Of a stretch of 64,000 nucleotides of DNA, positions 8,884 to 38,210 are shown in pieces. Where the stretch lies: positions 10,540,001 through 10,604,000 of the forward strand of contig OX597840.1 of NCBI GenBank assembly GCA_951406725.2, read 5' to 3'. The position numbers and the translations under genes were made by a program. The notes beneath the pieces are model-generated. The model did no database searches, was not told the origin of the DNA, and was given only the letters and a program-made list of their open reading frames with translations. The first letter of the stretch is position 1. Each line of letters begins with the position of its first letter. The stretch is from Octopus vulgaris (taxonomy: Eukaryota).

Positions 8884-10356
8884 TTTAGTAATATCTATGT
8901 ATTTTAGTAATTCCTTTTTGTTAGTCGACAGCTGTTTCGCTCCATCACCCTGCCGCTGACGCAAAACTTTTTCATTCTTCATTTTGTATGGTACTTTCTT
9001 CTGTCTTTCTTTTGGTGTTCGTAACTCTTGGTAATGCTGGAAATACACTTTCCGGCACATCAGAAACGTTATCAAAAATTAAGCTTTCTATTTTCTTCGC
9101 TTCTCGCCCAATCGATGATTCATTGCCCGACGAAGAATACAAACTTTTCGGCATCTTGCCAGCAATTAATGTTTTCCCCCACGGAGGAAAACCACAGATA
9201 GCTTTCGAAAGAAAACTATACTACAATTTGTCAACAATAAGTCCAACAATAAGCACAACAAGAGATATGACAATTAACAGAAACTTACGAAGACACTCCA
9301 GCAATAAATTTTCAATAACAGACGAACGAAATACCTATTTCTTTACTACCCATAAGGGGCTAAACATAGATGGGACAAACAAGGACAGACAAACGGATTA
9401 AGTCGCCTACATGGACTCCAGTGCGTAACTGGTACTTTATTTATCGACCCCGAAAGGATGAAAGGCAAAGTCGACCTCGGCCGAATTTGAACTCAGAACG
9501 TAACGGCAGACGAAATACCTAGTTCTTTACTACCCATAATGGGCTAAACAAAGAGGGGACAAACAAGGACAGACATAGGTATTAAGTCGCCTACATCGAC
9601 CCCAGTGCGTAACTGCTACTTATTTAATCGACCCCGAAAGGATGAAAGGCAAAGTCGACCTCGGTGGAATTTGATCTCAAAACGTAGCGGCAGACGAAAT
9701 ACGGCTACGCATTTCGCCCGGCGTGCTAACGTTTCTGCCAGGTCGCCGCCTTAAAAGACAAAAGGCAAAGTCGACCGCGGCGGAATTTGAGCTCAGAACT
9801 TCAAGACGGACGAAAAGACGTTAAGTATTTTGTCCGGCGTGCTAACGATTCTACCAGCTCTCCACCTTGTTTATCTTGCTATATCTAACAAATAAACAGT
9901 GTTGTAAACTGCGAGAAATTTCAACCAATGAAAAGGAGAAATTACTGAAGTAATAAAATGGCTACGAACATGATATACGCATGATCCGTTTGGCATAAAA
10001 GATGTGTTATATTTTCGATTTTTGTTTAGAACTTGGCCAGCCGGGAATGGTGAGCCTACGATGTTAAATATTCCAGCTGTAACTCCTCCCCTATGGGTGT
10101 TTTCTTCAACATCCTTAAACAATCCTTATTCAGCGTCCGTGTGTATCATAAGTTGAAGACGGGAAGGATGACTTCCCTTTGCAAATACTGACAGGACACA
10201 GATAGTGTGTCTATGGCCAGCTGGAGGAGTGTGTCCTCCTGGGGCTAAAAACTACAGTAGCATCCACCCTTAGGGGTTAGCCATATTGAAATGGCAAAAT
10301 TACGTCACGATGTGTTACTGCTACTGTATATAACTCACTTTGATATTTATCATTGT

Positions 10357-10387
<31 letters not shown>

Positions 10388-10474
10388 AAGGGTGGAAAGG
10401 AACACACCAGTTGATATATATGAAAAAACAAGTCAAAAATAGAAAATGCTAAAATAATTTTATAGTGAACATTT

Positions 10475-10512
10475 CAGTACCGGTTTCGGTCATTTTGAGA
10501 CCTTTTCAACTG
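10475..10512 (-). ncRNA. Minimal type-I hammerhead ribozyme, U3-A8 core variant, in the PLE pseudo-LTR
   Basis: Minus strand reads CAG UUGAAAA GGUC-ucaaaau-GACC GAAA CCGG UA CUG: stem I CAG/CUG, stem II GGUC/GACC, palindromic stem III ACCGGU. Confidence 0.75.
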
Positions 10513-11214
10513 TAACGATTAAATAATTAAATTTAGAAAAATTAGAAGGAAAGTTTTTTTAAAGGAATATTTCTATAGTAGTGTTCAGATATAAGTAGCA
10601 TTCTGCCTTTCTCTGACTCCCTTGTTTGCACTTGTGTGTTCGAGGTCGTTGTGAGTTCTTGGTAGGTTAGTAGAGGAAGAAGGCTGATGAGGAAAGGGGT
10701 GGGAGAATCTGGGAGTGCCCTGATGGTCGTATTTTGAATGGTCAGTGGCGGCTGGCAGTCACAGTTCAATTCAGGAGAATATTTCTATTGAAAGGCTTGT
10801 TTATAGAATTTGCGTAGGTGTTATACTAAAAAACATTAGTGACAAAGTTAAGGGGTAGAAGGTGGAGAAGTAGAAGAAGAAGAAGAAGAAGAAGAAGAAG
10901 ATGATGACGATGTTGATGATGATGATGATGATGAAGGAGAAGAAGAAGGAGAAGGAGAAGGTGACGATGATGGTGATGGTGGTGATGGTTATCACGACGA
11001 TGATGATGATAATGATGATGATGAAGAAGAAGAAGAAGAAGAAGAAAAAAACAGAGAAGGGAGAATATGAATGGGTTAAAGTAGTGAGGTGTTGTATGAC
11101 TTGAAGTTGGCATGTTATGGATTATAGCTGTGATTTTAGCTGTGATTAGTAATGGATTCTTTGGAATGTAATATTTGTGTGTGAATATTTCTTTTATTCT
11201 AAAGTTGAGGTATA

Positions 11215-13313
11215 TTAATTGTTTGTCGTAGACCCGTTAAGAAGTGGCCTGTATTTTGCAATAAAGAGAGTTTCTTTACTTATTCGTTGTCTCGAGGTTG
11301 TATCGTCCCTAAATTGGTAGAGGGGGAAAATCCTGAAGCTTAGTGTTTTTTTGTTGGCGCAAGTATCTATGTGTTGGCTAAAAGCTATTTTTCTGTTTTG
11401 GGGAATTTTTATCTGGGATCTTTGCAGGGCCATTCGTTTACGCAAAATAATTTTTGTTTGGCCTATGTACTGCTCTTGACACCCGGAGCAGGTTAGTGAG
11501 TATATTAGGTTCTCCGAAGCACATGTGAAGTTGCTTTTCACTGTAAACCGTTGTCCCTGTTTGAAGGAGAACTCTGATCCCTCAATTAGATAGTCGCATA
11601 TCCCGCAATTGGGTCTTCCACATTTTTTTACTGTCGGCTTCTGTGTTGAAGAGTGAATTCGGGCTTGTGTTAGGAGACTTTTCATGGATTTAGGCTGTCT
11701 CTTGCTTTTTATGATCGTGTGTGTTTGGAGGATTGTGTTCATTCTGTGGTCTTTTTTTAGGAGGGGTATGTTGTGAAGGATGGTGCCGAAGGCTTCGTTA
11801 TTGAGAGGGTTGTGTGTGGAGATGTATGGTAAGGCTTTTGGTTGTAAGTTTTTCTTTGATTTGGGATGTCTCAGTTCCTTGATGTTAAGTTGAATGCACT
11901 TGTCAACAAGTGAAGGTGGATAGTTCCTGGTGATAAGGGTATCTTTTAGTTCTTGTAGTCGTGTGTCTCTGGTGTTTGCGTTCGAGACTATAGTGCATAT
12001 CCTTTTTGCTAGATTGAAGGGGATATTCATCCTGGTGTGTCTGGGGTGGCATGAATTGAATGGAAGATATTGCTTAGAGTCTGTATTCTTATAATATATG
12101 TCTGTTTCTATTATATTATTAGCTTTCTTAATGAGGATATCGAGGAAGGGGAGTTGTTGCTGGCTATATTCCATCGTGAATTGGATGTTTACGTCCAGTC
12201 CGTTTAAAATTTCCTGGAATTCTATGAGTTTTTCTATATTTTTATGCCAAAGGATGAAACAGTCATCTAGATATCTCTTCCAGTTGTTTTCTATGTAGAT
12301 GGAGAAAGGGCTGCCATATCTTTCTAGAACCTTACGTTACAGACTGATCTCTAGATATCCTATGACTAGGTTGGCAAAGGAGGGGGCCATTCGTGTACCC
12401 ATCGCAGTCCCCGATTTTTGTCGGTAGAAGTTGTCATCGAAGGCGAAGAAGTTATTTTCCAGGATGAATTTAACCCCTTCTATCACGAATTCTTTTTTGA
12501 TGCGATGTGGTAGTTTGTTGGCGTGATTTTCTAGCCAGAATTGGATTGCCTCTAGTCCTAGGTTGTGGGGGATATTGGAGTAGCGGTTGACTACATCGAA
12601 GGATACCAGTATGGTGTTTTTGTTTATAGTATTCGGTAGGTGATTGAGCATATCTAAGTCGTCCCTTATATAGCTTTTGACATGTTTTAGGAGTGGTTTT
12701 AACAGGGTGTCTAAAAAGTTACTGAGGCGGTGGGTTTCGCATGCGGGACCTGCTATTATAGGTCTCAATTTGAGGTCATTAGGATTAGGGACTTTAATTA
12801 TTTTGTTTGTAGCTATCTTGCATGCGTTGCTTATTTTCTCACTTTTGTGGATCTTAGGTATACCGTAGAATTGGCTGGTTTTGCTTGTGAAATTGGTCAT
12901 ATAATCATATTCTTTGTCGGTGAGCCCTGCTTTGTATGGGTTTAATATGGATTTTACCCATATTTTAGATATGGGTAATTAGATATGTGGTCACAAATCA
13001 TCAAGTGTTTTGTTCTTACCTTTCGAGGGGGTGTAGTTACTCCTATTTCTGGATAACGATTCGTCCTCGTTGTATTTATCGTATAGCTCCTCAGTAAGTC
13101 TTAATTTTCTGCAGAATTCTGCGATGTCTTCTTTCATTTCGTTGTAGTTCGGGTGTTGTGGGGTGGGTGTAAACTTGAGTCCTTTGGAAAGTATGTTTAT
13201 TTGGTTTCTGTTAGTTCCTTGTGAGTTAGATTGATAATTTTTATTACTTTTGGTTCCTCCTGCTTGTTTGGTGCTATCTTGTGTCTCTGTGTTTGCGTAT
13301 TGGGTCTAAAAAA
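11215..13313 (-). pseudogene. PLE ORF2 (RT + GIY-YIG), disrupted
   Basis: The N-terminal PLE motif IINLTHKELT..INILSKGLKFTPTP has a 1-nt frameshift near 13201. There is an apparent internal deletion near 12960 and a TAT>TAA stop at 12337 relative to the second copy. Confidence 0.85.
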
Positions 13314-14509
13314 TGAATGCGGTGGTTGGGACGGTAGCTATTATATAGTTGTTCTTTGTTGATGTGGGGTCTCCTGTTGTGATTTATGGTGTGTGTTCTT
13401 GGAGCAGTATTGAGGAGAGCATCCCGATATCCCATATTCGGGTGTGGTGTTCTAGGAGGCCTTCGCTGGTAATCATTGTAAGTGGTGTGGGTTTGTTGTG
13501 CATGGTTGTTTGACCGGTTGATGGGACGGAGATTTCGTTGGTAACTCCTTTGGGTGGGGATAAGGTTGCAGTGTCTATGCTGTGGGTGTTGATTTATCCT
13601 TTCTCTGCTTGAAGTGGGGGTATTCCTGATATTGTAACGCTGGCTGCTTACAGAGTTAGGGTTAGGTCCTGTATTCTTTTTTTGAAAGTAGTGAAGGTTC
13701 CGATTTTTAGACAGGTGTGTATCGGTGTTTGGGTGTTGTTTTGGCTTTCTTATTTTCTGGAAAGGGTTGTTGGAGGCGTGCTCTGTTTGAAAGACGGCTT
13801 CATAGTCTGAGAACCAAATGGCGCTTTTCTCCCAGCGTTGGAGAGATTTTAGTTCTTCTTTTTCACAGTCCTCTTTCCATAGTTTGGAGAACTTCTCTTG
13901 ATCTAGGCCTTGGGTCATTTTGCGAATTTCTTCGTTGATATCTTCATCGGTGGATTTTATTTTATCCTCATTCGTTTGGGCCCTCAATTTCAGAAGTTCT
14001 ATTTCCATTTTCATTTTTTCCAGTGCCATTCTCTCCCTGAGGTGTCTTTGTGTTTCAGGTTCCTCTGTAATAGCTTTGAACTGGAATTTACGTGGGAGGA
14101 TTAACGGGGTCCGGTTGAGCCATTTTTCGTATATATCCGCTTTGTTGTTGCTTTGGATCATCTTCCAAAAGGCGAACTTTCTATCTCTGAGTGATTTGTT
14201 CCATTGTGGTATTATGTGGTGTTTCATTTGGTATGTTGTTAGAGTATTGATCCCATATATTGACGCGTTTGGAGGTCCTTGGTTAGCGTTGTTAGAGAAA
14301 AATGTTCTAATTGTTTCGCATAAGTTTCCAAGGTTTTCGACAATTTCGGAGGTTGTATTTTTCGTATCTGTTTCCTCATTGTTCTCTCGATTGGGTTGAT
14401 GTGTCGAGTCGAATTTGTTCAAAAATGTTGACAAATTTGTGTTGATTTTCTTGAGTTCTTTCAGTATTTCTTCATTTATGGAGGCGATTGTGTCTGTTTT
14501 TGTCGGCAT
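13274..14509 (-). CDS. PLE ORF1, ~411 aa, coiled-coil plus basic low-complexity C-terminus
   Basis: Uninterrupted ORF from ATG 14509 directly downstream of the pseudo-LTR, with heptad-like segments (LRERMALEKMKMEIELLKLRAQTNEDKIK) and an R/N/H/P-rich tail. Confidence 0.75.
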   Translation of the reverse strand: MPTKTDTIASINEEILKELKKINTNLSTFLNKFDSTHQPNRENNEETDTKNTTSEIVENLGNLCETIRTFFSNNANQGPPNASIYGINTLTTYQMKHHIIPQWNKSLRDRKFAFWKMIQSNNKADIYEKWLNRTPLILPRKFQFKAITEEPETQRHLRERMALEKMKMEIELLKLRAQTNEDKIKSTDEDINEEIRKMTQGLDQEKFSKLWKEDCEKEELKSLQRWEKSAIWFSDYEAVFQTEHASNNPFQKIRKPKQHPNTDTHLSKNRNLHYFQKKNTGPNPNSVSSQRYNIRNTPTSSRERINQHPQHRHCNLIPTQRSYQRNLRPINRSNNHAQQTHTTYNDYQRRPPRTPHPNMGYRDALLNTAPRTHTINHNRRPHINKEQLYNSYRPNHRIHFLDPIRKHRDTR

Positions 14510-14629
14510 TTTCTGTATCTCGTGTGGGTTAATGATATGTATAAGGGTGGAAAGGAACACACGAGTTGATATATATGAAAAAACAAGTCAAAAATAGAAA
14601 ATGCTAAGATAATTTTATAGTGAATCTTT

Positions 14630-14667
14630 CAGTACCGGTTTCGGTCATTTTGAGACCTTTTCAACTG
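14630..14667 (-). ncRNA. Second copy of the U3-A8 hammerhead ribozyme
   Basis: Identical to 10475-10512; lies ~120 nt upstream of the ORF1 ATG. Confidence 0.75.
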
Positions 14668-15291
14668 TAACGATTAAATAATTAAATTTAGAAAAATTAG
14701 AAGAAAAGTTTTTTTAAAAGGAATATTTCTATAGTAGTGTTCAGATATAAGTGGCATTCTGCCTTTCTCTGACTCCCTTGTTTGCACTTGTGTGTTCGAG
14801 GTCGTTGTGAGTTCTTGGTAGGGTAGGAGAAGCAGAAGGCTGATGTGGAAAGGGGGTGGGGAAATCTGGGAATGCCTTGATGGTCGTATTTTGAATGGTC
14901 AGTGGCTGAGAGCAGTCGCAGTTCAATTCAGGAATTGTTTATGGAATTTGCGTAGGCGTTATACTGAAAGGCATTAGTGACAAAGTTAAGGGGTAGAAGG
15001 TGGAGAAGTAGAAGAAGATGACGATGTTGATGATGATGATGATGAAGAAGAAGAAGAAGAAGAAGAAGAAGAAGAAGAAGAAGAAGATGATGATGATGGT
15101 GGTGATGATGATGACGACGATGATGATGATAATGATGATGATGAAGAAGAAGAGGAAGAAGAGGAAAAAACAGAGAAGGGTGAATATGAATGGGTGAAAG
15201 TATAGCTGTGATGGGGCTGATTAGTAATGGATTCTATGGAATGTAATATTTGTGTGTGTATATATTTCTTTTATTCTAAAGTTGAGGTATA

Positions 15292-16523
15292 TTAATTGTT
15301 TGTCGTAGACCCGTTAAGAAGTGGCTTGTATTTTGTAATAAAGAGAGTTTCTTTACTTATTCGTTGTCTCGAGGTTGTATCGTCCCTAAATTGGTAGAGG
15401 GGGAAAATCCTGAAGTTGGGTGTTTTTTTGTTGGCGCAAGTATCTATGTGTTGGCTAAAAGCTATTTTTCTGTTTTGGGGAATTTATATCTGGGATCTGT
15501 GCAGGGCCATTCGTTTACGCAAACCATTTTTTGTTTGGCCTATGTACTGCTCTTGACACCCGGAGCAGGTTAGTGAGTATATTAGGTTCTCCGAAGCACA
15601 TGTGAAGTTGCTTTTCACTGTAAACCGTTGTCCCTGTTTGAAGGAGAACTCTGATCCCTCAGTTAGATAGTCGCATATCCCGCAATTGAGTCTTCCACAT
15701 TTTTTTACTGTCGGCTTCTGTGTTGAAGAGTGAATTCGGGCTTGTGTTAGGAGACTTTTCATGGATCTAGGCTGTCTCTTGCTTTTTATGATCGTGTGTG
15801 TTTGGAGGATTGTGTTCATTCTGTGGTCTTTTTTTAGGAGGGGTATGTTGTGGAGGATGTTGCCGAAGGCTTCGTTATTGAGAGGGTTGTGTGTGGAGAT
15901 GTATGGTAAGGCTTTTGGTTGTAAGTTTTTCTTTGATTTGGGATGTCTCAGTTCCTTGATGTTAAGTTGAATGCACTTGTCAATAAGTGAAGGTGGATAG
16001 TTCCTGGTGATAAGGGTATCTTTTAGTTCTTGTAGTCGTGTGTCTCTGGTGTTTGCGTTCGAGACTATAGTGCATATCCTTTTTGCTAGATTGAAGGGGG
16101 TATTCATCCTGGTGTGTCTGGGGTGGCATGAATTGAATGGAAGATATTGCTTAGAGTCTGTAGGCTTATAGTATATGTCTGTTTCTATCATATTATTAGC
16201 TTTCTTAATGAGGATATCGAGGAAGGGGAGTTGTTGCTGGCTATATTCCATCATGAATTGGATGTTTACGTCCAGTCCGTTTAAAATTTCCTGGAATTTT
16301 ATGAGTTTTTCTATATTTTTATGCCAAAGAATGAAACAGTCATCTAGATATCTCTTCCAGTTGTTTTCTATGTAGATGGAGAAAGGGCTGCCATATCTTT
16401 CTAGAACCTTACGATACAGACTGATCTCTAGGTATCCTATGACTAGGTTGGCAAAGGAGGGGGCCATTCGTGTACCCATCGCAGTCCCCGATTTTTGTCG
16501 GTAGAAGTTGTCATTGAAGGCGA
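15292..16523 (-). pseudogene. 5'-truncated PLE ORF2 copy (RT C-half + GIY-YIG)
   Basis: Near-identical to 11215-12445, with a 1-nt deletion near 15484 that truncates the endonuclease. Confidence 0.85.
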
Positions 16524-16524
16524 C

Positions 16525-16552
<28 letters not shown>

Positions 16553-16556
<4 letters not shown>

Positions 16557-17553
16557 TGTTATATTTCGGAATGGTCATATTGCCAGATTAGCCAATAAAA
16601 ACACACGCACTATATATTTGGTGTTATTTTGCTTCAGTGTTATTTATTTTTTACATTAATCTTAATCTTATTTCGGCCAGAGTTCTTTCGTCACACTCCT
16701 GTGACCGCATCAGTGGTCCTTTGTTTTCTTCTTTCTTATTTATGTCTCTCCTTACTAACCGTCAGCCATTTTGTATTTCTATTGTATGTCTTCATTTGCG
16801 CATGCTTATATCTCTATGTGCGTTTATGTTTATTTAGTGTGTGTATGTGGGGGGGGGATGACTGTAATATTTGTATCTTCTGTTTATATATGTTCATTTA
16901 ATTTGTATTTTCTTTTTGTTGACAATAGAGGATCATAAAAACATAATAAGTACACAGATAAATAAACTAATAGAAATAAATAACTATATATATGTATATA
17001 TGTGTGTGTATATATATATGTAGATATTTTTATTTATTTATATATATATTTTTTTTTTTTCTTCTTTTTTTTCGATTCGATTTATTATTATTATTACTAG
17101 TATTGTTGTTATACACACAAGCATATGTAATGATAATAATGAGTGGATGTAAACACATGAACAAAATAAGAATAAACAAAAACAACAAAAACAAAAACAA
17201 AAGAAATTACATGAACATATATAAACAGAAGATACAAATATTACAGGCATCCCCCCCACATACACACACTAAATTAACATAAACGCACATAGAGATATAA
17301 GCATGCGCAAATGAAGACATACAATAGAAATACAAAATGGCTGACGGTTAGTAAGGAGAGACATAAATAAGAAAGAAGAAAACAAAGGGCCACTGATGCG
17401 GTCACAGGAGTGTGACGAAAGAACTCTGGCCGAAATAAGATTAAGATTAATGTAAAAAATAAATAACACTGAAGCAAAATAACACCAAATATATAGTGCG
17501 TGTGTTTTTATTGGCTAATCTGGCAATATGACCATTCCGAAATATAACAATAT
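16553..17553. mobile_element. Non-coding element with ~345-bp inverted arms (16553-16897 / 17211-17553), each carrying a hammerhead-like motif
   Basis: The arms are reverse complements, which explains the mirrored ORFs in the track. Motif GGCCA CUGAUGCG GUCAC-aggagu-GUGAC GAAA GAAC UC UGGCC at 17388-17431(+) and 16675-16718(-). Confidence 0.8.
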
Positions 17554-17622
17554 CTGTTTCAACACACGACTTCACATAAAAAATCTTGCACAACAAATAT
17601 TTAAACGTATATATATATATAT

Positions 17623-23796: not shown

Positions 23797-24599
23797 CTGA
23801 TCAGCACCGCGGAAAAGGAGACAGTGTCGATAAAATATGTACCAGTTAAACACTGGGGTCGATGTAATCAACAAACTGCTTTCACTTAAAATAATAATCT
23901 TGTGACATTTGAAACCAAAGGCGGCAATGTGACAGAATCATTAGCAAGCCGGACAAACCGCTTAGTGGCATTTCTTCCGACTGTTTATGTTCTCCTCCCA
24001 AATGGCGCCGAGGTCGACTTCGCAATTCATCTTTTAGATATCGGTAAGATAAATTAAAATAAAATAATACATTAAATAAATATATTAAAGTCATTGATAT
24101 CAACTACCCTCTTCACTCTTCCTCTAAAATTGCTGGCCTTGTGCCAACATTTCAAACCATGATCCCACCTTCACAAAGAGGAAAAGAGAAAATTGGCCCA
24201 GCTGGAGTGTTTTTGTATATATAAAAAAATCCTTTTAGTTAAGCAGTATTTTGCATATTCATAGAATCATGTGTGGTGTTCATGTTTTAGGTGCAACTGC
24301 ATTGATTTCGTACATAATAATGTCTTTATTATGAATTGTGCCTTTGTAATTTGTTTCGCTGGGAGTGTAGACATGTTTTAATCTTGGTGTGAAGAAAATG
24401 CATTTTGGAAATTCAGAAACACGACCTCAGAGAAGCTTTTCTTTTTTGCATTAAATGGAATAAAAACGAACAAATATAAAGAAAAAGAAAGGAAAAGAAA
24501 AGCGTGGAAGATGGGGAAACTATTTATTTTATTTGTTATTGTTATTTGGGGGAAGTAACTCTTAAAAAGATTTTTAACGAAACTTCAAGAAATACGTTG

Positions 24600-27500
24600 A
24601 AAAGAATTTTATTTCTTTATTGCCAACGTACAGCGGCTTGCAAAAGTCTACAACCCCTTTTGAAAATTTATATATTTTGTATAATTTAAAAGGGAACAAC
24701 TCCTTTTTTTCAATTCCTCTGATTGTTAAATAATAATCAGATCCATCAAACATTTAAAAGAATTTTGTTTATTTATTGCCAACGTACAGTGGCTTGCAAA
24801 AGTCTACAACCCCTTTTGAAAATTTATATATTTTGTATAATTTAACAGGGAACAACTCCTTTTTTTCAATTCCACTGATTGTTAAATAATAATCAGATAC
24901 ATCAAACATTTAAAAGAATTTTATTTATTTATTGCCAACGTACAGTGGCTTGCAAAAGTCTACAACCCCTTTTGAAAATTTATATATTTTGTATAATTTA
25001 ACAGGGAACAACTCCTTTTTTTCAATTCCACTGATTGATAAATAATAATCAGATACATCAAACATTTAAAAGAATTTTATTTATTTATTGCCAACGTACA
25101 GTGGCTTGCAAAAGTCTACAACCCCTTTTGAAAATTTATATATTTTGTATAATTTAACAGGGAACAACTCCTTTTTTTCAATTCCAATGATTGTTAAATA
25201 ATAATCAGATCCATCAAACATTTAAAAGAATTTTATTTATTTATTGCCAACGTACAGTGGCTTGCAAAAGTCTACAACCCCTTTTGAAAATTTATATATT
25301 TTGTATAATTTAACAGGGAACAACTCCTTTTTTTCAATTCCAATGATTGTTAAATAATAATCAGATCCATCAAACATTTAAAAGAATTTTATTTATTTAT
25401 TGCCAACGTACAGTGGCTTGCAAAAGTCTACGACCCCTTTTGAAAATTTATATATTTTGTATAATTTAACAGGAAAAACTCCTTTTTTTCAATTCCATTG
25501 ATTGATAAATAATAATCAGATCCATCAAACATTTAAAAGAATTTTATTTATTTATTGCCAACGTACAGTGGCTTGCAAAAGTCTACAACCCCTTTTGAAA
25601 ATTTATATATTTTGTATAATTTAACAGGAAACAACTCCTTTTTTTTCAATTCCATTGATTGATAAATAATAATCAGATCCATCAAACATTTAAAAGAATT
25701 TTATTTATTTATTGCCAACGTACAGTGGCTTGCAAAAGTCTACAACCCCTTTTGAAAATTTATATATTTTGTATAATTTAACAGGGAACAACTCCTTTTT
25801 TTCAATTCCAATGATTGTTAAATAATAATCAGATCCATCAAACATTTAAAAGAATTTTATTTATTTATTGCCAACGTACAGTGGCTTGCAAAAGTCTACA
25901 ACCCCTTTTGAAAATTTATATATTTTGTATAATTTAACAGGGAACAACTCCTTTTTTTCAATTCCAATGATTGTTAAATATTAATCAGAGCCATAAAACA
26001 TTTAAAAGAATTTTATTTATTTATTGCCAACGTACAGTGGCTTGCAAAAGTCTACAACCCCTTTTGAAAATTTATATATTTTGTATAATTTAACAGGGAA
26101 CAACTCCTTTTTTTCAATTCCATTGATTGATTAAATAATAATCAGATCCATCAAACATTTAAAAGAATTTTATTTATTTATTGCCAACGTACAGTGGCTT
26201 GCAAAAGTCTACAACCCCTTTTGAAAATTTATATATTTTGTATAATTTAACAGGGAACAACTCCTTTTTTTCAATTCCAATGATTGTTAAATAATAATCA
26301 GATCCATCAAACATTTAAAAGAATTTTATTTATTTATTGCCAACGTACAGTGGCTTGCAAAAGTCTACAACCCCTTTTGAAAATTTATATATTTTGTATA
26401 ATTTAACAGGGAACAACTCCTTTTTTCAATTCCAATGATTGTTAAATAATAATCAGATCCATCAAACATTTAAAAGAATTTTATTTATTTATTGCCAACG
26501 TACAGTGGCTTGCAAAAGTCTACAACCCGTTTTGAAAATTTATATATTTTGTATAATTTAACAGGGAACAACTCTTTTTTTTCAATTCCACTGATTGTTA
26601 AATAATAATCAGATCCATAAAACATTTAAAAGAATTTTATTTATTTATTGCCAACGTACAGTGGCTTGCAAAAGTCTACAACCCCTTTTGAAAATTTATA
26701 TATTTTGTATAATTTAACAGGGAACAACACCTTTTTTTCAATTCCACTGATTGTTAAATAATAATCAGATCCATCAAACATTTAAAAGAATTTTATTTAT
26801 TTATTGCCAACGTACAGTGGCTTGCAAAAGTCTACAACCCCTTTTGAAAATTTATATATTTTGTATAATTTAACCGGGAACAACTCCTTTTTTCCAATTC
26901 CACTGATTGTTAAATAATAATCAGATCCATCAAACATTTAAAAGAATTTTATTTATTTATTGCCAACGTACAGTGGCTTGCAAAAGTCTACAACCCCTTT
27001 TGAAAATTTATATATTTTGTATAATTTAACAGGGAACAACTCCTTTTTTTCAATTCCACTGATTGTTAAATAATAATCAGATCCATCAAACATTTAAAAG
27101 AATTTTATTTATTTATTGCCAACGTACAGTGGCTTGCAAAAGTCTACAACCCCTTTTGAAAATTTATATATTTTGTATAATTTAACAGGGAACAACTCCT
27201 TTTTTTCAATTCCACTGATTGTTAAATAATAATCAGATCCATTAAAACATTTAAAAGAATTTTATTTATTTATTGCCAACGTACAGTGGCTTGCAAAAGT
27301 CTACAACCCCTTTTGAAAATTTATATATTTTGTATAATTTAACAGGGAACAACTCCTTTTTTTCAATTCCACTGATTGTTAAATAATAATCAGATCCATC
27401 AAACATTTAAAAGAATTTTATTTATTTATTGCCAACGTACAGTGGCTTGCAAAAGTCTACAACCCCTTTTGAAAATTTATATATTTTGTATAATTTAACA

Positions 27501-30500
27501 GGGAACAACTCCTTTTTTCAATTCCACTGATTGTTAAATAATAATCAGATCCATCAAACATTTAAAAGAATTTTATTTATTTATTGCCAACGTACAGTGG
27601 CTTGCAAAAGTCTACAACCCCTTTTGAAAATTTATATATTTTGTATAATTTAACAGGGAACAACTCCTTTTTTTCAATTCCAATGATTGTTAAATAATAA
27701 TCAGATCCATCAAACATTTAAAAGAAATATATTTATTTATTGCCAACGCACAGTGGCTTGCAAAAGTCTACAACCCCTTTTGAAAATTTATATATTTTGT
27801 ATAATTTAACAGGGAACAACTCCTTTTTTTCAATTCCAATGATTGTTAAATAATAATCAGATCCATCAAACATTTAAAAGAATTTTATTTATTTATTGCC
27901 AACGTACAGTGGCTTGCAAAAGTCTACAACCCCTTTTGAAAATTTATATATTTTGTATAATTTAACAGGGAACAACTCCTTTTTTCAATTCCAATGATTG
28001 TTAAATAATAATCAGATCCATCAAACATTTAAAAGAATTTTATTTATTTATTGCCAACGACAGTGGCTTGCAAAAGTCTACAACCCCTTTTGAAAATTTA
28101 TATATTTTGTATAATTTAACAGGGAACAACTCCTCTTTTTCAATTCCAATGATTGTTAAATAATAATCAGATCCATCAAACATTTAAAAGAATTTTATTT
28201 ATTTATTGCCAACGTACAGTGGCTTGCAAAAGTCTACAACCCCTTTTGAAAATTTATATATTTTGTATAATTTAACAGGGAACAACTCCTTTTTTCCAAT
28301 TCCACTGATTGTTAAATAATAATCAGATCCATCAAACATTTAAAAGAATTTTATTTATTTATTGCCAACGTACAGTGGCTTGCAAAAGTCTACAACCCCT
28401 TTTCAAAATTTATATATTTTGTATAATTTAACAGGGAACAACTCTTTTTTTCAATTCCACTGATTGTTAAATAATAATCAGATCCATAAAACATTTAAAA
28501 GAATTTTATTTATTTATTGCCAACGTACAGTGGCTTGCAAAAGTCTACAACCCCTTTTGAAAATTTATATATTTTGTATAATTTAACAGGGAACAACACC
28601 TTTTTTCAATTCCACTGATTGTTAAATAATAATCAGATCCATCAAACATTTAAAAGAATTTTATTTATTTATTGCCAACGTACAGTGGCTTGAAAAAGTT
28701 CTACAACCCCTTTTGAAAATTTATATATTTTGTATAATTTAACAGGGAACAACACCTCTTTTTCAATTCCACTAATTGTTAAATAATAATCAGATCCATC
28801 AAACATTGAAAAGAATTTTATTTATTTATTGCCAACGTACAGTGGCTTGCAAAAGTCTACAACCCCTTTTGAAAATTTATATATTTTGTATAATTTAACA
28901 GGGAACAACACCTCTTTTTCAATTCCAATGATTGTTAAATAATAATCAGATCCATCAAACATTTAAAAGAATTTTATTTATTTATTGCCAACGTACAGTG
29001 GCTTGAAGAAGTCTACAACCCGTTTTGAAAATTTATATATTTTGTATAATTTAACAGGGAACAACACCTCTTTTTCAATTCCACTAATTGTTAAATAATA
29101 ATCAGAACCATCAAACATTTAAAAGAATTTTATTTATTTTTTGCCAACGTACAGTGGCTTGAAAAAGTCTACAACCCCTTTTGAAAATTTATATATTTTG
29201 TATAATTTAACAGGGAACAACACCTCTTTTTCAATTCCACTAATTGTTAAATAATAATCAGAACCATCAAACATTTAAAAGAATTTTATTTATTTATTGC
29301 CAACTTACAGTGGCTTGAAAAAGTCTACAACCCGTTTTGAAAATTTATATATTTTGTATAATTTAACAGGGAACAACACCTCTTTTTCAATTCCACTAAT
29401 TGTTAAATAATAATCAGATCCATCAAACATTTAAAAGAATTTTATTTATTTATTGCCAACGTACAGTGGCTTGCAAAAGTCTACAACCCCTTTTGAAAAT
29501 GTATATATTTTGTATAATTTAACAGGGAACAACTCCTTTTTTCAATTCCACTGATTGTTAAATAATAATCAGATCCATCAAACATTTAAAAGAATTTTAT
29601 TTATTTATTGCCAACGTACAGTGGCTTGCAAAAGTCTACAACCCCTTTTGAAAATTTATATATTTTGTATAATTCAACAGGGAACAACACCTTTTCTTCA
29701 AGTCCACTGATTGTTAAATAATAATCAGATCCATCAAACATTTAAAAGAATTTTATTTATTTATTGCCAACGTACAGTGGCTTGCAAAAGTCTACAACCC
29801 CTTCTGAAAATTTATATATTTTGTATAATTTAACAGGGAACAACACCTTTTCTTCAAGTCCACTGATTGTTAAATAATAATCAGATCCATCAAACATTTA
29901 AAAGAATTTTATTTATTTCTTGCCAACGTACAGTGGCTTGCAAATGTCTACAACCCCTTTGAAAATTTATATATTTTGTATAATTTAAAAGGGAACAACT
30001 CCCTTTTTTCAATTCCACTGATTGTTAAATAATAATCAGATCCATCAAACATTTAAAAGAATTTTATTTATTTATTGCCAACGTACAGTGGCTTGCAAAA
30101 GTCTACAACCCCTTTTGAAAATTTATATATTTTGTATAATTTAACAGGGAACAACTCCTTTTTTTCAATTCCACTGATTGTTAAATAATAATCAGATCCA
30201 TCAAACATTTAAAAGAATTTTATTTATTTATTGCCAACGTACAGTGGCTTGCAAAAGTCTACAACCCCTTTTGAACATTTATATATTTTGTATAATTTAA
30301 CAGGGAACAACTCCTTTTTTTCAATTCCAATGATTGTTAAATAATAATCAGATCCATCAAACATTTAAAAGAATTTTATTTATTTATTGCCAACGTACAG
30401 TGGCTTGCAAAAGTCTACAACCCCTTTTGAAAATGTATATATTTTGTATAATTTAACAGGGAACAACTCCTTTTTTCAATTCCACTGATTGTTAAATAAT

Positions 30501-33160
30501 AATCAGATCCATCAAACATTTAAAAGAATTTTATTTATTTATTGCCAACGTACAGTGGCTTGCAAAAGTCTACAACCCCTTTCAAAATTTATATATTTTG
30601 TATAATTTAACAGGGAACAACTCCTTTTTTTCAATTCCACTGATTGTTAAATAATAATCAGATCCATCAAACATTTAAAAGAATTTCATTTATTTATTGC
30701 CAACGTACAGTGGCTTGCAAAAGTCTACAACCCCTTTTGAAAATTTATATATTTTGTATAATTTAACAGGGAACAACTCCTTTTTTCAATTCCACGATTG
30801 TTAAATAATAATCAGATCCATCAAACATTTAAAAGAATTTTATTTATTTATTGCCAACGTACAGTGGCTTGCAAAAGTCTACAACCCCTTTTGAAAATTT
30901 ATATATTTTGTATAATTTAACAGGGAACAACTCCTTTTTTTCAATTCCACTGATTGTTAAATAATAATCAGATCCATGAAACATTTAAAAGAATTTTATT
31001 TATTTATTGCCAACGTACAGTGGCTTGCAAAAGTCTACAACCCCTTTGAAAATTTATATATTTTGTATAATTTAACAGGGAACAACTCCTTTTTTTCAAT
31101 TCCACTGATTGTTAAATAATAATCAGATCCATCAAACATTTAAAAGAAATTTATTTATTTATTGCCAACGTACAGTGGCTTGCAAAATCTACAACCCCTT
31201 TGAAAATTTATATATTTTGTATAATTTAACAGGGAACAACTCCTTTTTTTCAATTCCACTGATTGTTAAATAATAATCAGATCCATAAAACATTTAAAAG
31301 AATTTTATTTATTTATTGCCAACGTACAGTGGCTTGCAAAAGTCTACAACCCCTTTGAAAATTTATATATTTTGTATAATTTAACAGGGAACAACTCCCT
31401 CTTTTTTTCAATTCCACTGATTGTTAAATAATAATCAGATCCATCAAACATTTAAAAGAATTTTATTTATTTATTGCCAACGTACAGTGGCTTGCAAAAG
31501 TCTACAACCCCTTTTGAAAATGTATATATTTTGTATAATTTAACAGGGAACAACTCCTTTTTTTCAATTCCACTGATTGTTAAATAATAATCAGATCCAT
31601 CAAACATTTAAAAGAATTTTATTTATTTATTGCCAACGTACAGTGGCTTGCAAAAGTCTACAACCCCTTTTGAAAATTTATATATTTTGTATAATTTAAC
31701 AGGGAACAACTCCCTCATTTTTTCAATTCCACTGATTGTTAAATAATAATCAGATCCGTGAAACATTTAAAAGAATTTTATTTATTTATTGCCAACGTAC
31801 AGTGGCTTGCAAAAGTCTACAACCCCTTTTGAAAATTTATATATTTTGTATAATTTAACAGGGAAAAACTCCTTTTTTTCAATTCCACTGATTGTTAAAT
31901 AATGATCAGATCCATCAAACATTTAAAAGAATTTTATTTATTTATTGCCAACGTACAGTGGCTTGCAAAAGTCTACAACCCCTTTTGAAAATGTATATAT
32001 TTTGTATAATTTAACAGGGAACAACTCCTTTTTTTCAATTCCACTGATTGTTAAATAATAATCAGATCCATCAAACATTTAAAAGAATTTTATTTATTTA
32101 TTGCCAACGTACAGTGGCTTGCAAAAGTCTACAACCCCTTTTGAAAATTTATATATTTTGTATAATTTAACAGGGAACAACTCCTTTTTTTCAATTCCAC
32201 TGATTGTTAAATAATAATCAGATCCATCAAACATTTAAAAGAATTTTATTTATTTATTGCCAACGTACAGTGGCTTGCAAAAGTCTACAACCCCTTTTGA
32301 AAATTTATATATTTTGTATAATTTAACAGGGAACAACTCCTTTTTTCAATTCCACTGATTGATAAATAATAAGCAGATCCATCAAACATTTAAAAGAATT
32401 TTATTTATTTATTGCCAACGTACAGTGGCTTGCAAAAGTCTACAACCCCTTTTGAAAATTTATATATTTTGTATAATTTAACAGGAACAACTCCTTTTTT
32501 TCAATTCCACTGATTGTTAAATAATAATCAGATCCATCAAACATTTAAAAGAATTTTATTTATTTATTGCCAACGTACAGTGGCTTGCAAAAGTCTACAA
32601 CCCCTTTTGAAAATTTATATATTTTGTATAATTTAACAGGGAACAACTCCTTTTTTTTCAATTCCACTGATTGTTAAATAATAATCAGATCCATCAAACA
32701 TTTAAAAGAATTTTATTTATTTATTGCCAACGCAGTGGCTTGCAAAAGTCTACAACCCCTTTTGAAAATATATATATTTTGTATAATTTAACAGGGAACA
32801 ACTCCTTTTTTCAATTCCACTGATTATTAAATAATAATCAGATCCATCAAACATTTAAAAGAATTTTATTTATTTATTGCCAACGTACAGTGGCTTGCAA
32901 AAGTCTACAACCTCTTTTGAAAAGTTATATATTTTGTATAATTTAACAGGGAACAACTCCTTTTTTTCAATTCCACTGATTGTTAAATAATAATCAGATC
33001 CATCAAACATTTAAAAGAATTTTATTTATTTATTGCCAACGTACAGTGGCTTGCAAAAGTCTACAACCTCTTTTGAAAATTTATATATTTTGTATAATTT
33101 AACAGGGAACAACTCCTTTTTTCAATTCCACTGATTGATAAATAATAAGCAGATCCATTA
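24600..33160 (+). repeat. 156-bp satellite, ~55 units, each containing a Tc1-type terminus TA|CAGTGGCTTGCAAAAGT
   Basis: Period of 156 bp (24631, 24787, 24943...), with highly homogeneous units. Confidence 0.95.
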
Positions 33161-34482: not shown

Positions 34483-35022
34483 CATATGACGGGGCATCTT
34501 TCTGTTTCCCTCTACCAAATCCACTCAGAAGGCTTTGGTCGGCCCGAGGGTATAGTAGAAGACACTTGCCCAAGGTGCCACGCAGTGGGACTGAATCCGG
34601 AACCATGTCGTTGGTAAGCAAGCTACTTACCACACACCCACTCCTACGCCTATGTTTTTGTTAATTTGTTAGTTTTATTGAGTATTTACTGTATGATTGT
34701 ATTCATGTATGTTTTTGGAGGATTGTTGCTTAGTAGTGTGCGTAAATCATAAGTCAAGCATTTCATAGCGTTCATGGCTCTCTGTTCATCGTTCTTTTCG
34801 GGGGTCGGTTCTGTTATGGGTCGGTCTTTACAGCATTTACTTTTTGACAGAACACCGACCATGGAGATGTGGTGATGTTTCTTTCGTATTTATAATTATT
34901 ATTGATATGTAAGCGAGAGGCCGAGAAGAAGCAACAATGACCATATATAGACAGGGTTTGTATAGTGATTAATATGCGATTAAAATTTTACTTACAATTT
35001 TACAGTTTCTGTAAATGGATAG

Positions 35023-37970
<2,948 letters not shown>

Positions 37971-38062
37971 ATGATATTTATACATACAAATACCTATATC
38001 TTCACGTTTATTTGTATTTATACATGTATACAAGCATATATGCATACATTTCTATACATATT

Positions 38063-38117
<55 letters not shown>

Positions 38118-38210
38118 GTGTGTGTGTGACCCTTCTGTCCGAGTCAGACGCCATGATAGATCATTAGCCACTACACACATTTTTTTCTCTCCTTGTTTCT
38201 TTCTGTGTTC

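Follow-up and report, generated by a model that had tools for sequence, protein, structure and literature searches.

Genomic junctions point to occasional hammerhead cutting and end-joining of Penelope-like element RNA in Octopus vulgaris

Whether the weak hammerhead ribozymes of Penelope-like elements (PLEs) cut in living cells, and to what purpose, has been stated as open (PMC4209133, PMC8557442, PMC11167929). A stretch of 64,000 nucleotides (nt) from Octopus vulgaris (contig OX597840.1, positions 10,540,001 to 10,604,000; hereafter the window) raises this question, as it contains a PLE unit bracketed by two hammerhead motifs. Here we describe the motifs, the junctions that related copies form at the predicted cut site throughout the genome, and what these junctions suggest about the RNA. 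It seems likely to us that the hammerheads occasionally cleave the RNA of the element inside cells, between window positions 14633 and 14632, and that the cut ends are ligated. That cutting likely takes place in the cell is argued from the architecture of the element, covariation of the stems, a pile-up of 5′ junctions at the first nucleotide of the predicted 3′ product (+1), and joints with the small nuclear RNA (snRNA) U6 and with halves of foreign hammerheads.

The two 38-nt motifs are identical and lie on the minus strand at 14667-14630 and 10512-10475, with a spacing of 4,155 nt; direct comparison confirmed both positions as given in the initial annotation. Judged from sequence and setting, they are minimal type I hammerheads within the pseudo-long terminal repeats (pLTRs) of a Penelope-like retrotransposon, probably of Neptune type. 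Stem I consists of 3 bp, an A-A mismatch and 2 bp more; the core has U3 and A8, G12-A13-A14, an A at position 17 and a NUH triplet; stem II has 4 bp and a loop of 7 nt, and stem III is a 6-nt palindrome. The predicted cut lies 123 nt upstream of the ATG of open reading frame (ORF) 1 at 14509, position +1 being 14632 and the equivalent base of the downstream copy 10477. In Rfam the motifs matched Hammerhead_HH9 at 22.9 and 19.7 bits, both under the gathering score of 52. The identity of the two motifs is no sign of selection, because both lie within a 2-kb duplication of 92% identity, microsatellites included. The hammerhead assignment, the pLTR placement and the dimer-type stem III that had been proposed for them gain support from the architecture and from the published PLE class, and the U3-A8 variant is already on record from about 1,300 motifs in the Cercyon PLEs of Schistosoma (Cervera and De la Pena 2014, PMC4209133). 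The proposal that the motifs are one unit of about 4.15 kb apart holds for the spacing but not for the unit, since the window copy carries deletions and other units measure 4,318-4,455 nt. In thermodynamic folding the isolated motif was unexceptional against shuffles (z = -0.75). The active monomer fold was predicted at -0.2 kcal/mol against -7.7 for a misfold, a cost of 7.5 kcal/mol, whereas a dimer with one active site had -20.9 kcal/mol, within 2 kcal/mol of the minimum of -22.9; intermolecular pairing via stem III was predicted at 0.55-0.6.

We investigated the distribution of such motifs by pattern searches covering the whole 2.8-Gb genome. A core-plus-palindrome pattern with U3-A8 gave 5,805 matches, against 32 for a reversed control. 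With the same palindrome, the other states of positions 3 and 8 gave 105 (U3-G8), 106 (C3-A8) and 26 (C3-G8) matches; these counts mirror family expansion and therefore do not represent independent events. Families C and D had 581 and 82 pattern matches, with 0 in their controls. One representative from each of eight hammerhead families was then compared. The core and the 3-8 pair were retained in the eight (six U-A, one C-G, one U-G). Stems I and II were unlike in sequence between families, with pairing largely retained: stem I had 3-7 contiguous pairs in seven families, family H having 2, stem II folded in six and was marginal in D and E, and stem III was a perfect palindrome in seven of the eight. 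Covariation, which the initial annotation had named as a check, is thus seen between families, where the stems vary with pairing largely kept, but not inside the young family of the window, which has no stem variation.

The 5′ junctions of truncated copies were collected by searching for tails that have no stem II upstream. This gave 126 matches, 100 of them listed; 54 loci with arms that looked truncated or unclear were fetched, and the remaining listed ones showed small indels with the element continuing. Removal of 5 duplicates and 5 internal indels left 53 arms, with junctions between -11 and +9. Among the matches listed, 12 of these 53 de-duplicated arms began exactly at +1. A uniform null allowing for chance matching predicts 2.1 (p ~1e-6), and one kept flat downstream of the cut predicts 3.9 (p 3.5e-4). 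Thirty-eight junctions lay downstream and 15 upstream of the cut. All copies that start at +1 are tiny, running to about +63 or about +107 and then into (TA)n. Scaled for the filter, their number suggests that they make up approximately 1-2% of the copies of the lineage. By eye, about 7 of 34 loci with junctions in (TA)n flanks fell at +1 or +2, a set that overlaps the main one and stands outside the statistics; also by eye, downstream junctions outnumbered upstream ones in family C, so that the step is present there. The cut site predicted in the initial annotation is therefore exactly where genomic 5′ junctions pile up and where the U6 joints described below lie.

Two further kinds of rearrangement were seen at these sites. 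The fold-back insertions L162 and L170 are centred on the stem III palindrome itself. Several listed copies have lost 1-4 nt or gained 1-2 nt directly at the cut, while element sequence runs on to either side; these are possible scars of re-joining. No loose RNA end at the cut was found among the assembled RNA contigs shown, which cannot show ends and so count neither way.

In 2 of the 12 +1 arms the flank was the U6 snRNA 3′ end, with Rfam scores of 67 and 56 bits. A genome search with this end gave 105 matches, 100 of them listed, most of which then run into other repeats or unique DNA. Eight listed loci and L176 formed the set of assignable U6-element joints; the partner family of L258 was not assigned. 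All 9 of the 9 loci in the set that are assignable to a hammerhead family start at +1. Four belong to the window's lineage A/B (A and B being inseparable from the tail alone), one to E, two to G and two to H. Families G and H served as blind tests: the partner sequence was unfamiliar, and other copies of it carry a hammerhead that ends exactly at the U6 junction. The U6 part had a run of exactly five T in 14 of 16 arms joined to the element, in comparison with 3 of 12 other fetched U6 loci. Fifteen of the 16 arms were joined at offset 0, and the remaining one has C in place of the fifth T. The joints lack added bases and microhomology, as expected of RtcB chimeras. A narrower U6-plus-tail pattern gave a single match, the same as a locus already in the set. 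Mature U6 has a five-U end with a cyclic phosphate, which RtcB joins to 5′-OH ends (PMC6789731), and hammerhead cleavage leaves a 5′-OH (PMC3884650); joints at +1 appear consistent with RtcB-type ligation of such a 5′-OH end. Three other loci (L265, L266, L267) have U6 copies straight in (TA)n, one of them as an inverted pair, which suggests mobilisation by the PLE machinery without a tail. We found no literature that joins Penelope, U6 snRNA and the hammerhead.

Another class of +1 junction was with hammerheads of foreign origin. In four events (L208, L275, L276/277, L238/239) the 5′ half of a foreign hammerhead is joined cut-to-cut to the element at +1; the pattern for such joints gave 11 matches, comprising 4 arms at 3 loci that continue into the element and 7 that do not. 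The flank at L208, also among the 12 +1 arms, stems from another hammerhead: it is a 5′ half that shares 93% identity across 60 nt with a tandem retrozyme of about 360 nt and stops at its own predicted cut; the 3′ side carries the tail of the window's downstream copy. In the fourth event, L238/239, a retrozyme-like half is joined to family H. For the opposite arrangement, the 5′ half of the window family followed by foreign sequence, there were 61 matches, mostly to an unrelated A-rich repeat, with a pattern that excluded C-initial partners. No description of retrozyme-to-PLE joints was found in the literature, as far as this was covered, and the nearest review is silent on them in its available part.

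The tandem retrozyme family (L284-L301) has a unit of 359-360 nt and 1,560 pattern matches; sampled copies have either C3 with C4 or U3-G8 cores, and two listed copies (G000:C1:67213603, C1:70917259) pass into foreign sequence right at the cut. Family H (L237, L243) had 1,981 tail matches and carries both U6 and retrozyme-like joints at its predicted cut.

How the cut relates to the RNA template of insertion was assessed from the other ends of the copies. According to the initial annotation, read-through RNA is cut into a unit-length transcript; in the corresponding model, both hammerheads cut and this linear RNA is message and template. Such a model is favoured by the presence of a complete unit flanked by two hammerheads with the cut 123 nt before ORF1, and by the use of the cut site that the +1 junctions and U6 joints point to. 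RNA cut at both sites was not observed. In a census of 144 alignment arms, overlapping loci unmerged, 3′ ends of insertions fell at +55 to +70 in 71 and at +95 to +125 in 49, whereas 23 read through, 1 ended elsewhere and 0 ended at the cut. The ends at +63 and +107, which define an optional tail, would be start sites of reverse transcriptase (RT), by analogy with the two internal ones shown for the Anolis element (PMC11167929). An ORF1 census had 98 candidates, 40 of them scored and 30 bearing ORF1; none of these 30 begins at the cut, the 5′ limits closest to it being -77, -79 and +52, and the copies that do start there are the tiny ones. From known chemistry, a cut-to-cut RNA would also be without cap and poly(A). 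Since the RT start sits near the 5′ end of a linear cut-to-cut RNA, such RNA gives tiny copies, and long copies therefore need uncut or re-joined RNA. A linear cut-to-cut unit is thus unlikely as the template, and we regard the model of message and template combined as very improbable. In two arrays the units are nearly identical within the array, and those of one array share private alleles; this homogeneity is no pointer to circles, because later unequal crossover explains it equally.

Several points weigh against occasional cutting followed by ligation. Cleavage and ligation are here predicted from genome sequence. Stem I of the window family is short at 3 bp, and the lowest-energy predicted dimer includes a U3-A17 pair, which could form in six of the families; in the C3 form, position 3 is presumed to trap G17 by pairing (PMC3884650), an analogue of U3-A17. 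Cleavage by published minimal hammerheads of PLEs is slow and poor, dimers included (PMC4209133), and cutting in the Anolis element depended on protein, was not required for in vitro insertion and gave no RNA-seq read ends (PMC11167929). Family C has no sharp +1 peak (about 3-5 of 43 listed arms, by eye), family H combines a weak stem I with C at position 13, the paired arms of a single inversion do not count as independent, the position is ambiguous by 1 nt in three of the four foreign-hammerhead joints, and no source family was found for L275. Finally, template jumping by RT would give similar junctions. In such an explanation the ribozyme cuts, and RT, on reaching the cut 5′ end of its template, switches to the 3′ end of another RNA, no ligation being involved. 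U6 and retrozyme monomers are, from general knowledge, plentiful small RNAs with free 3′ ends; many +1 junctions carry different flanks, among them fold-backs, (TA)n and, at L215, an interior stretch of the element; and template switching is not excluded for some chimeras by PMC6789731. We nevertheless judge this to be unlikely, as the RNA partners identified are those expected to bear cyclic phosphate ends, the five-T run of 14 of 16 U6 arms is joined with no added bases, and the foreign halves stop at their own predicted cut. We give still less credence than to the linear-unit model to the idea that the hammerhead is vestigial and that +1 is a transcription start or a protein-nuclease site coinciding with it by chance. 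The combination of U3-A8, A17 and a stem I of 3 bp may lack activity, and promoters reside in pLTRs (PMC6765202), but the coincidence at +1 is exact in families with unrelated flanks, one canonical C3-G8 family included, and the U6 joints show no extra base.

We therefore favour occasional cutting and ligation, which might proceed as follows. Two RNA copies would pair through the palindromic stem III, or a protein would aid folding, and cleavage would leave a 5′-OH on the 3′ product of the element. An RtcB-type ligase could join this end to RNAs with a 2′,3′-cyclic phosphate, namely mature U6 and the 5′ products of other hammerheads. The element's RT would start 63 or 107 nt downstream of the cut, so that cut linear RNA would yield tiny copies or chimeras only, and long copies would derive from read-through RNA that escaped cutting, or from RNA that was re-ligated or circular. 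Probably a minority of the RNA is cut, and the U3-A17 pair may dampen the cutting. As a tentative extension, to which we assign a clearly lower likelihood, the hammerhead-type ends of Penelope and retrozyme RNAs and the end of U6 might form one ligatable pool in the germ line: a host ligase would exchange halves among hammerhead elements of unrelated kinds and circularise cut-to-cut Penelope units, RT would copy circles from +63 or +107 to produce pLTRs and tandem arrays, and the U3-A8/A17 core would act as a brake on the entry of RNA.

The element itself is a partial tandem, in which a 2-kb 5′-truncated copy (16523-14526) is followed by a full unit that ends near 10371, with (TA)n at both ends; the truncated copy adjoins (TA)n at 16524. 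Features are listed in Table 1. The order of RT, CX2-5CxxC linker and C-terminal GIY-YIG domain agrees with the Neptune/Nematis group, as do the partial tandems of pLTRs, inverted copies, optional tail and (TA)n targets. The window copy of ORF2 has a 1-nt gap near 13207, a 2-nt gap near 12995, 217 nt missing at 12967-12956, a 12-nt lesion near 11894 and a stop near 12339, with a total shortfall of about 230 nt. Among 19 other hammerhead-to-hammerhead units of 4,318-4,455 nt, 9 have both ORFs open. The translation of a natural open copy of ORF2 (784 codons) scored above the cut-off for RVT_1, and at 21.1 bits for GIY-YIG, just under the cut-off of 22.6.

Table 1. Coordinates of the Penelope-like element and its hammerheads in the window
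Feature	Position	Strand	Basis or remark
Upstream minimal type I hammerhead, U3-A8 core, palindromic stem III	14630..14667	-	Rfam HH9 22.9 bits, below gathering
Downstream hammerhead, identical to the upstream one	10475..10512	-	Rfam HH9 19.7 bits
Predicted scissile bond	14632..14633	-	Hammerhead numbering; junction peak and U6 joints at +1 in other copies
5′-truncated upstream copy (pLTR): 3′ part of RT, endonuclease, 3′ untranslated region, hammerhead, tail	14526..16523	-	92% match to 10380-12446
ORF1, 411 amino acids	13274..14509	-	No Pfam family; three unnamed homologues
ORF2 (RT and GIY-YIG), -1 frame, broken in the window copy	11215..13337	-	Translation, comparison with other units
Slippery heptamer (six U and A) in the ORF1/ORF2 overlap, candidate -1 frameshift site	13307..13313	-	Found in each of 20 units
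Zinc-finger-like linker C-x4-C-x2-C ahead of the endonuclease, a mark of Neptune/Nematis as defined in PMC8557442	11596..11622	-	Translation
Downstream cut to insertion end, 107 nt	10371..10477	-	Family ends at about +63 and about +107
(TA)n target tract bordering the insertion at its 3′ end	10346..10370	.	Sequence

The heptamer at 13313-13307 is of the HIV type and lies inside the 61-nt overlap of ORF1 and ORF2, with the ORF1 stop about 30 nt downstream; ORF2 has no Met ahead of its first conserved motif. The homologues P0001 and P0003 keep the same residues at the heptamer and end soon after. No stimulatory structure was predicted downstream of it (z ~ +0.55), and no splice joint at the overlap was seen among the contigs shown in eight alignments of assembled RNA contigs from seven runs. 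At the 217-nt deletion sits an 11-nt filler that repeats the flank in inverted orientation; the alleles change subfamily at this point, which makes the window copy a mosaic. The (TA)n tract upstream also holds head-to-head ends of another hammerhead-bearing repeat, at 16553-16920 on the minus strand and 17190-17605 on the plus strand, one arm exceeding the other by about 50 nt; the hammerheads of this repeat have a C3-G8 core, C at position 9 and a 5-bp stem I, with cores starting near 16713 and 17393. Elsewhere in the window are a 156-nt tandem array of about 55 copies (24500-33000) and a 9-nt repeat array that makes an open frame of 1,050 codons (35015-38167).

The motif is a member of a known and ordinary class, and its interest is the record of cutting and end-joining. 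The genomic joints place the cut to the base and point to the chemistry of its ends, those between retrozymes and PLEs make a direct physical link between retrozymes and the PLE machinery, and all of them name exact RNA junctions to seek in raw reads. We found no literature, within incomplete coverage, on the C3U and G8A changes together in hammerheads. Like Cercyon of S. mansoni (PMC4209133), the octopus element has its motifs in pLTRs, as a tandem pair around an ORF, with a short palindromic helix III, a U3-A8 core and thousands of mostly solitary copies; unlike Cercyon, it combines A17 with a stem I of 3 bp and a stem II of 4 bp that lacks the 5′ bulge. The available part of that study presents no in vivo evidence, whereas the octopus genome holds junctions at the cut site.

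Neptune EN+ PLEs (Craig et al. 2021, PMC8557442) share with it the RT, the zinc-finger-like linker, the C-terminal GIY-YIG domain, (TA)n targets, partial tandems and inverted copies, but the octopus element has a separate ORF1 and an ORF2 in the -1 frame; a figure legend in the same paper allows 'ORF1 separated by a frameshift with a pseudoknot', for a clade not discernible there. The Poseidon element PAc of Anolis (Frangieh et al. 2024, PMC11167929) similarly has AT-rich targets and an optional tail set by two internal RT start sites, which lie downstream of the hammerhead, and differs in its C3-G8 core overlapping the ORF start, its single ORF and, in the part available, the lack of reads at the cut. 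Animal non-LTR retrozymes, whose monomers RtcB circularises in vitro (PMC7229834; bioRxiv 10.64898/2026.07.22.740005), are matched in the octopus genome by the 359-360-nt tandem hammerhead repeat; a difference is that the octopus genome has 5′ products of retrozymes linked to 3′ products of PLEs. Finally, the U6 joints resemble the U6/LINE-1 chimeric pseudogenes formed through RtcB ligation (Moldovan et al. 2019, PMC6789731), in which a U6 end of about five T is joined to the RNA of a retrotransposon, with no bases added, and then retrotransposed. The acceptor is variable in those chimeras, whereas here it is fixed at the ribozyme cut, other hammerhead products also occur as partners, and the element is a PLE that inserts into (TA)n.

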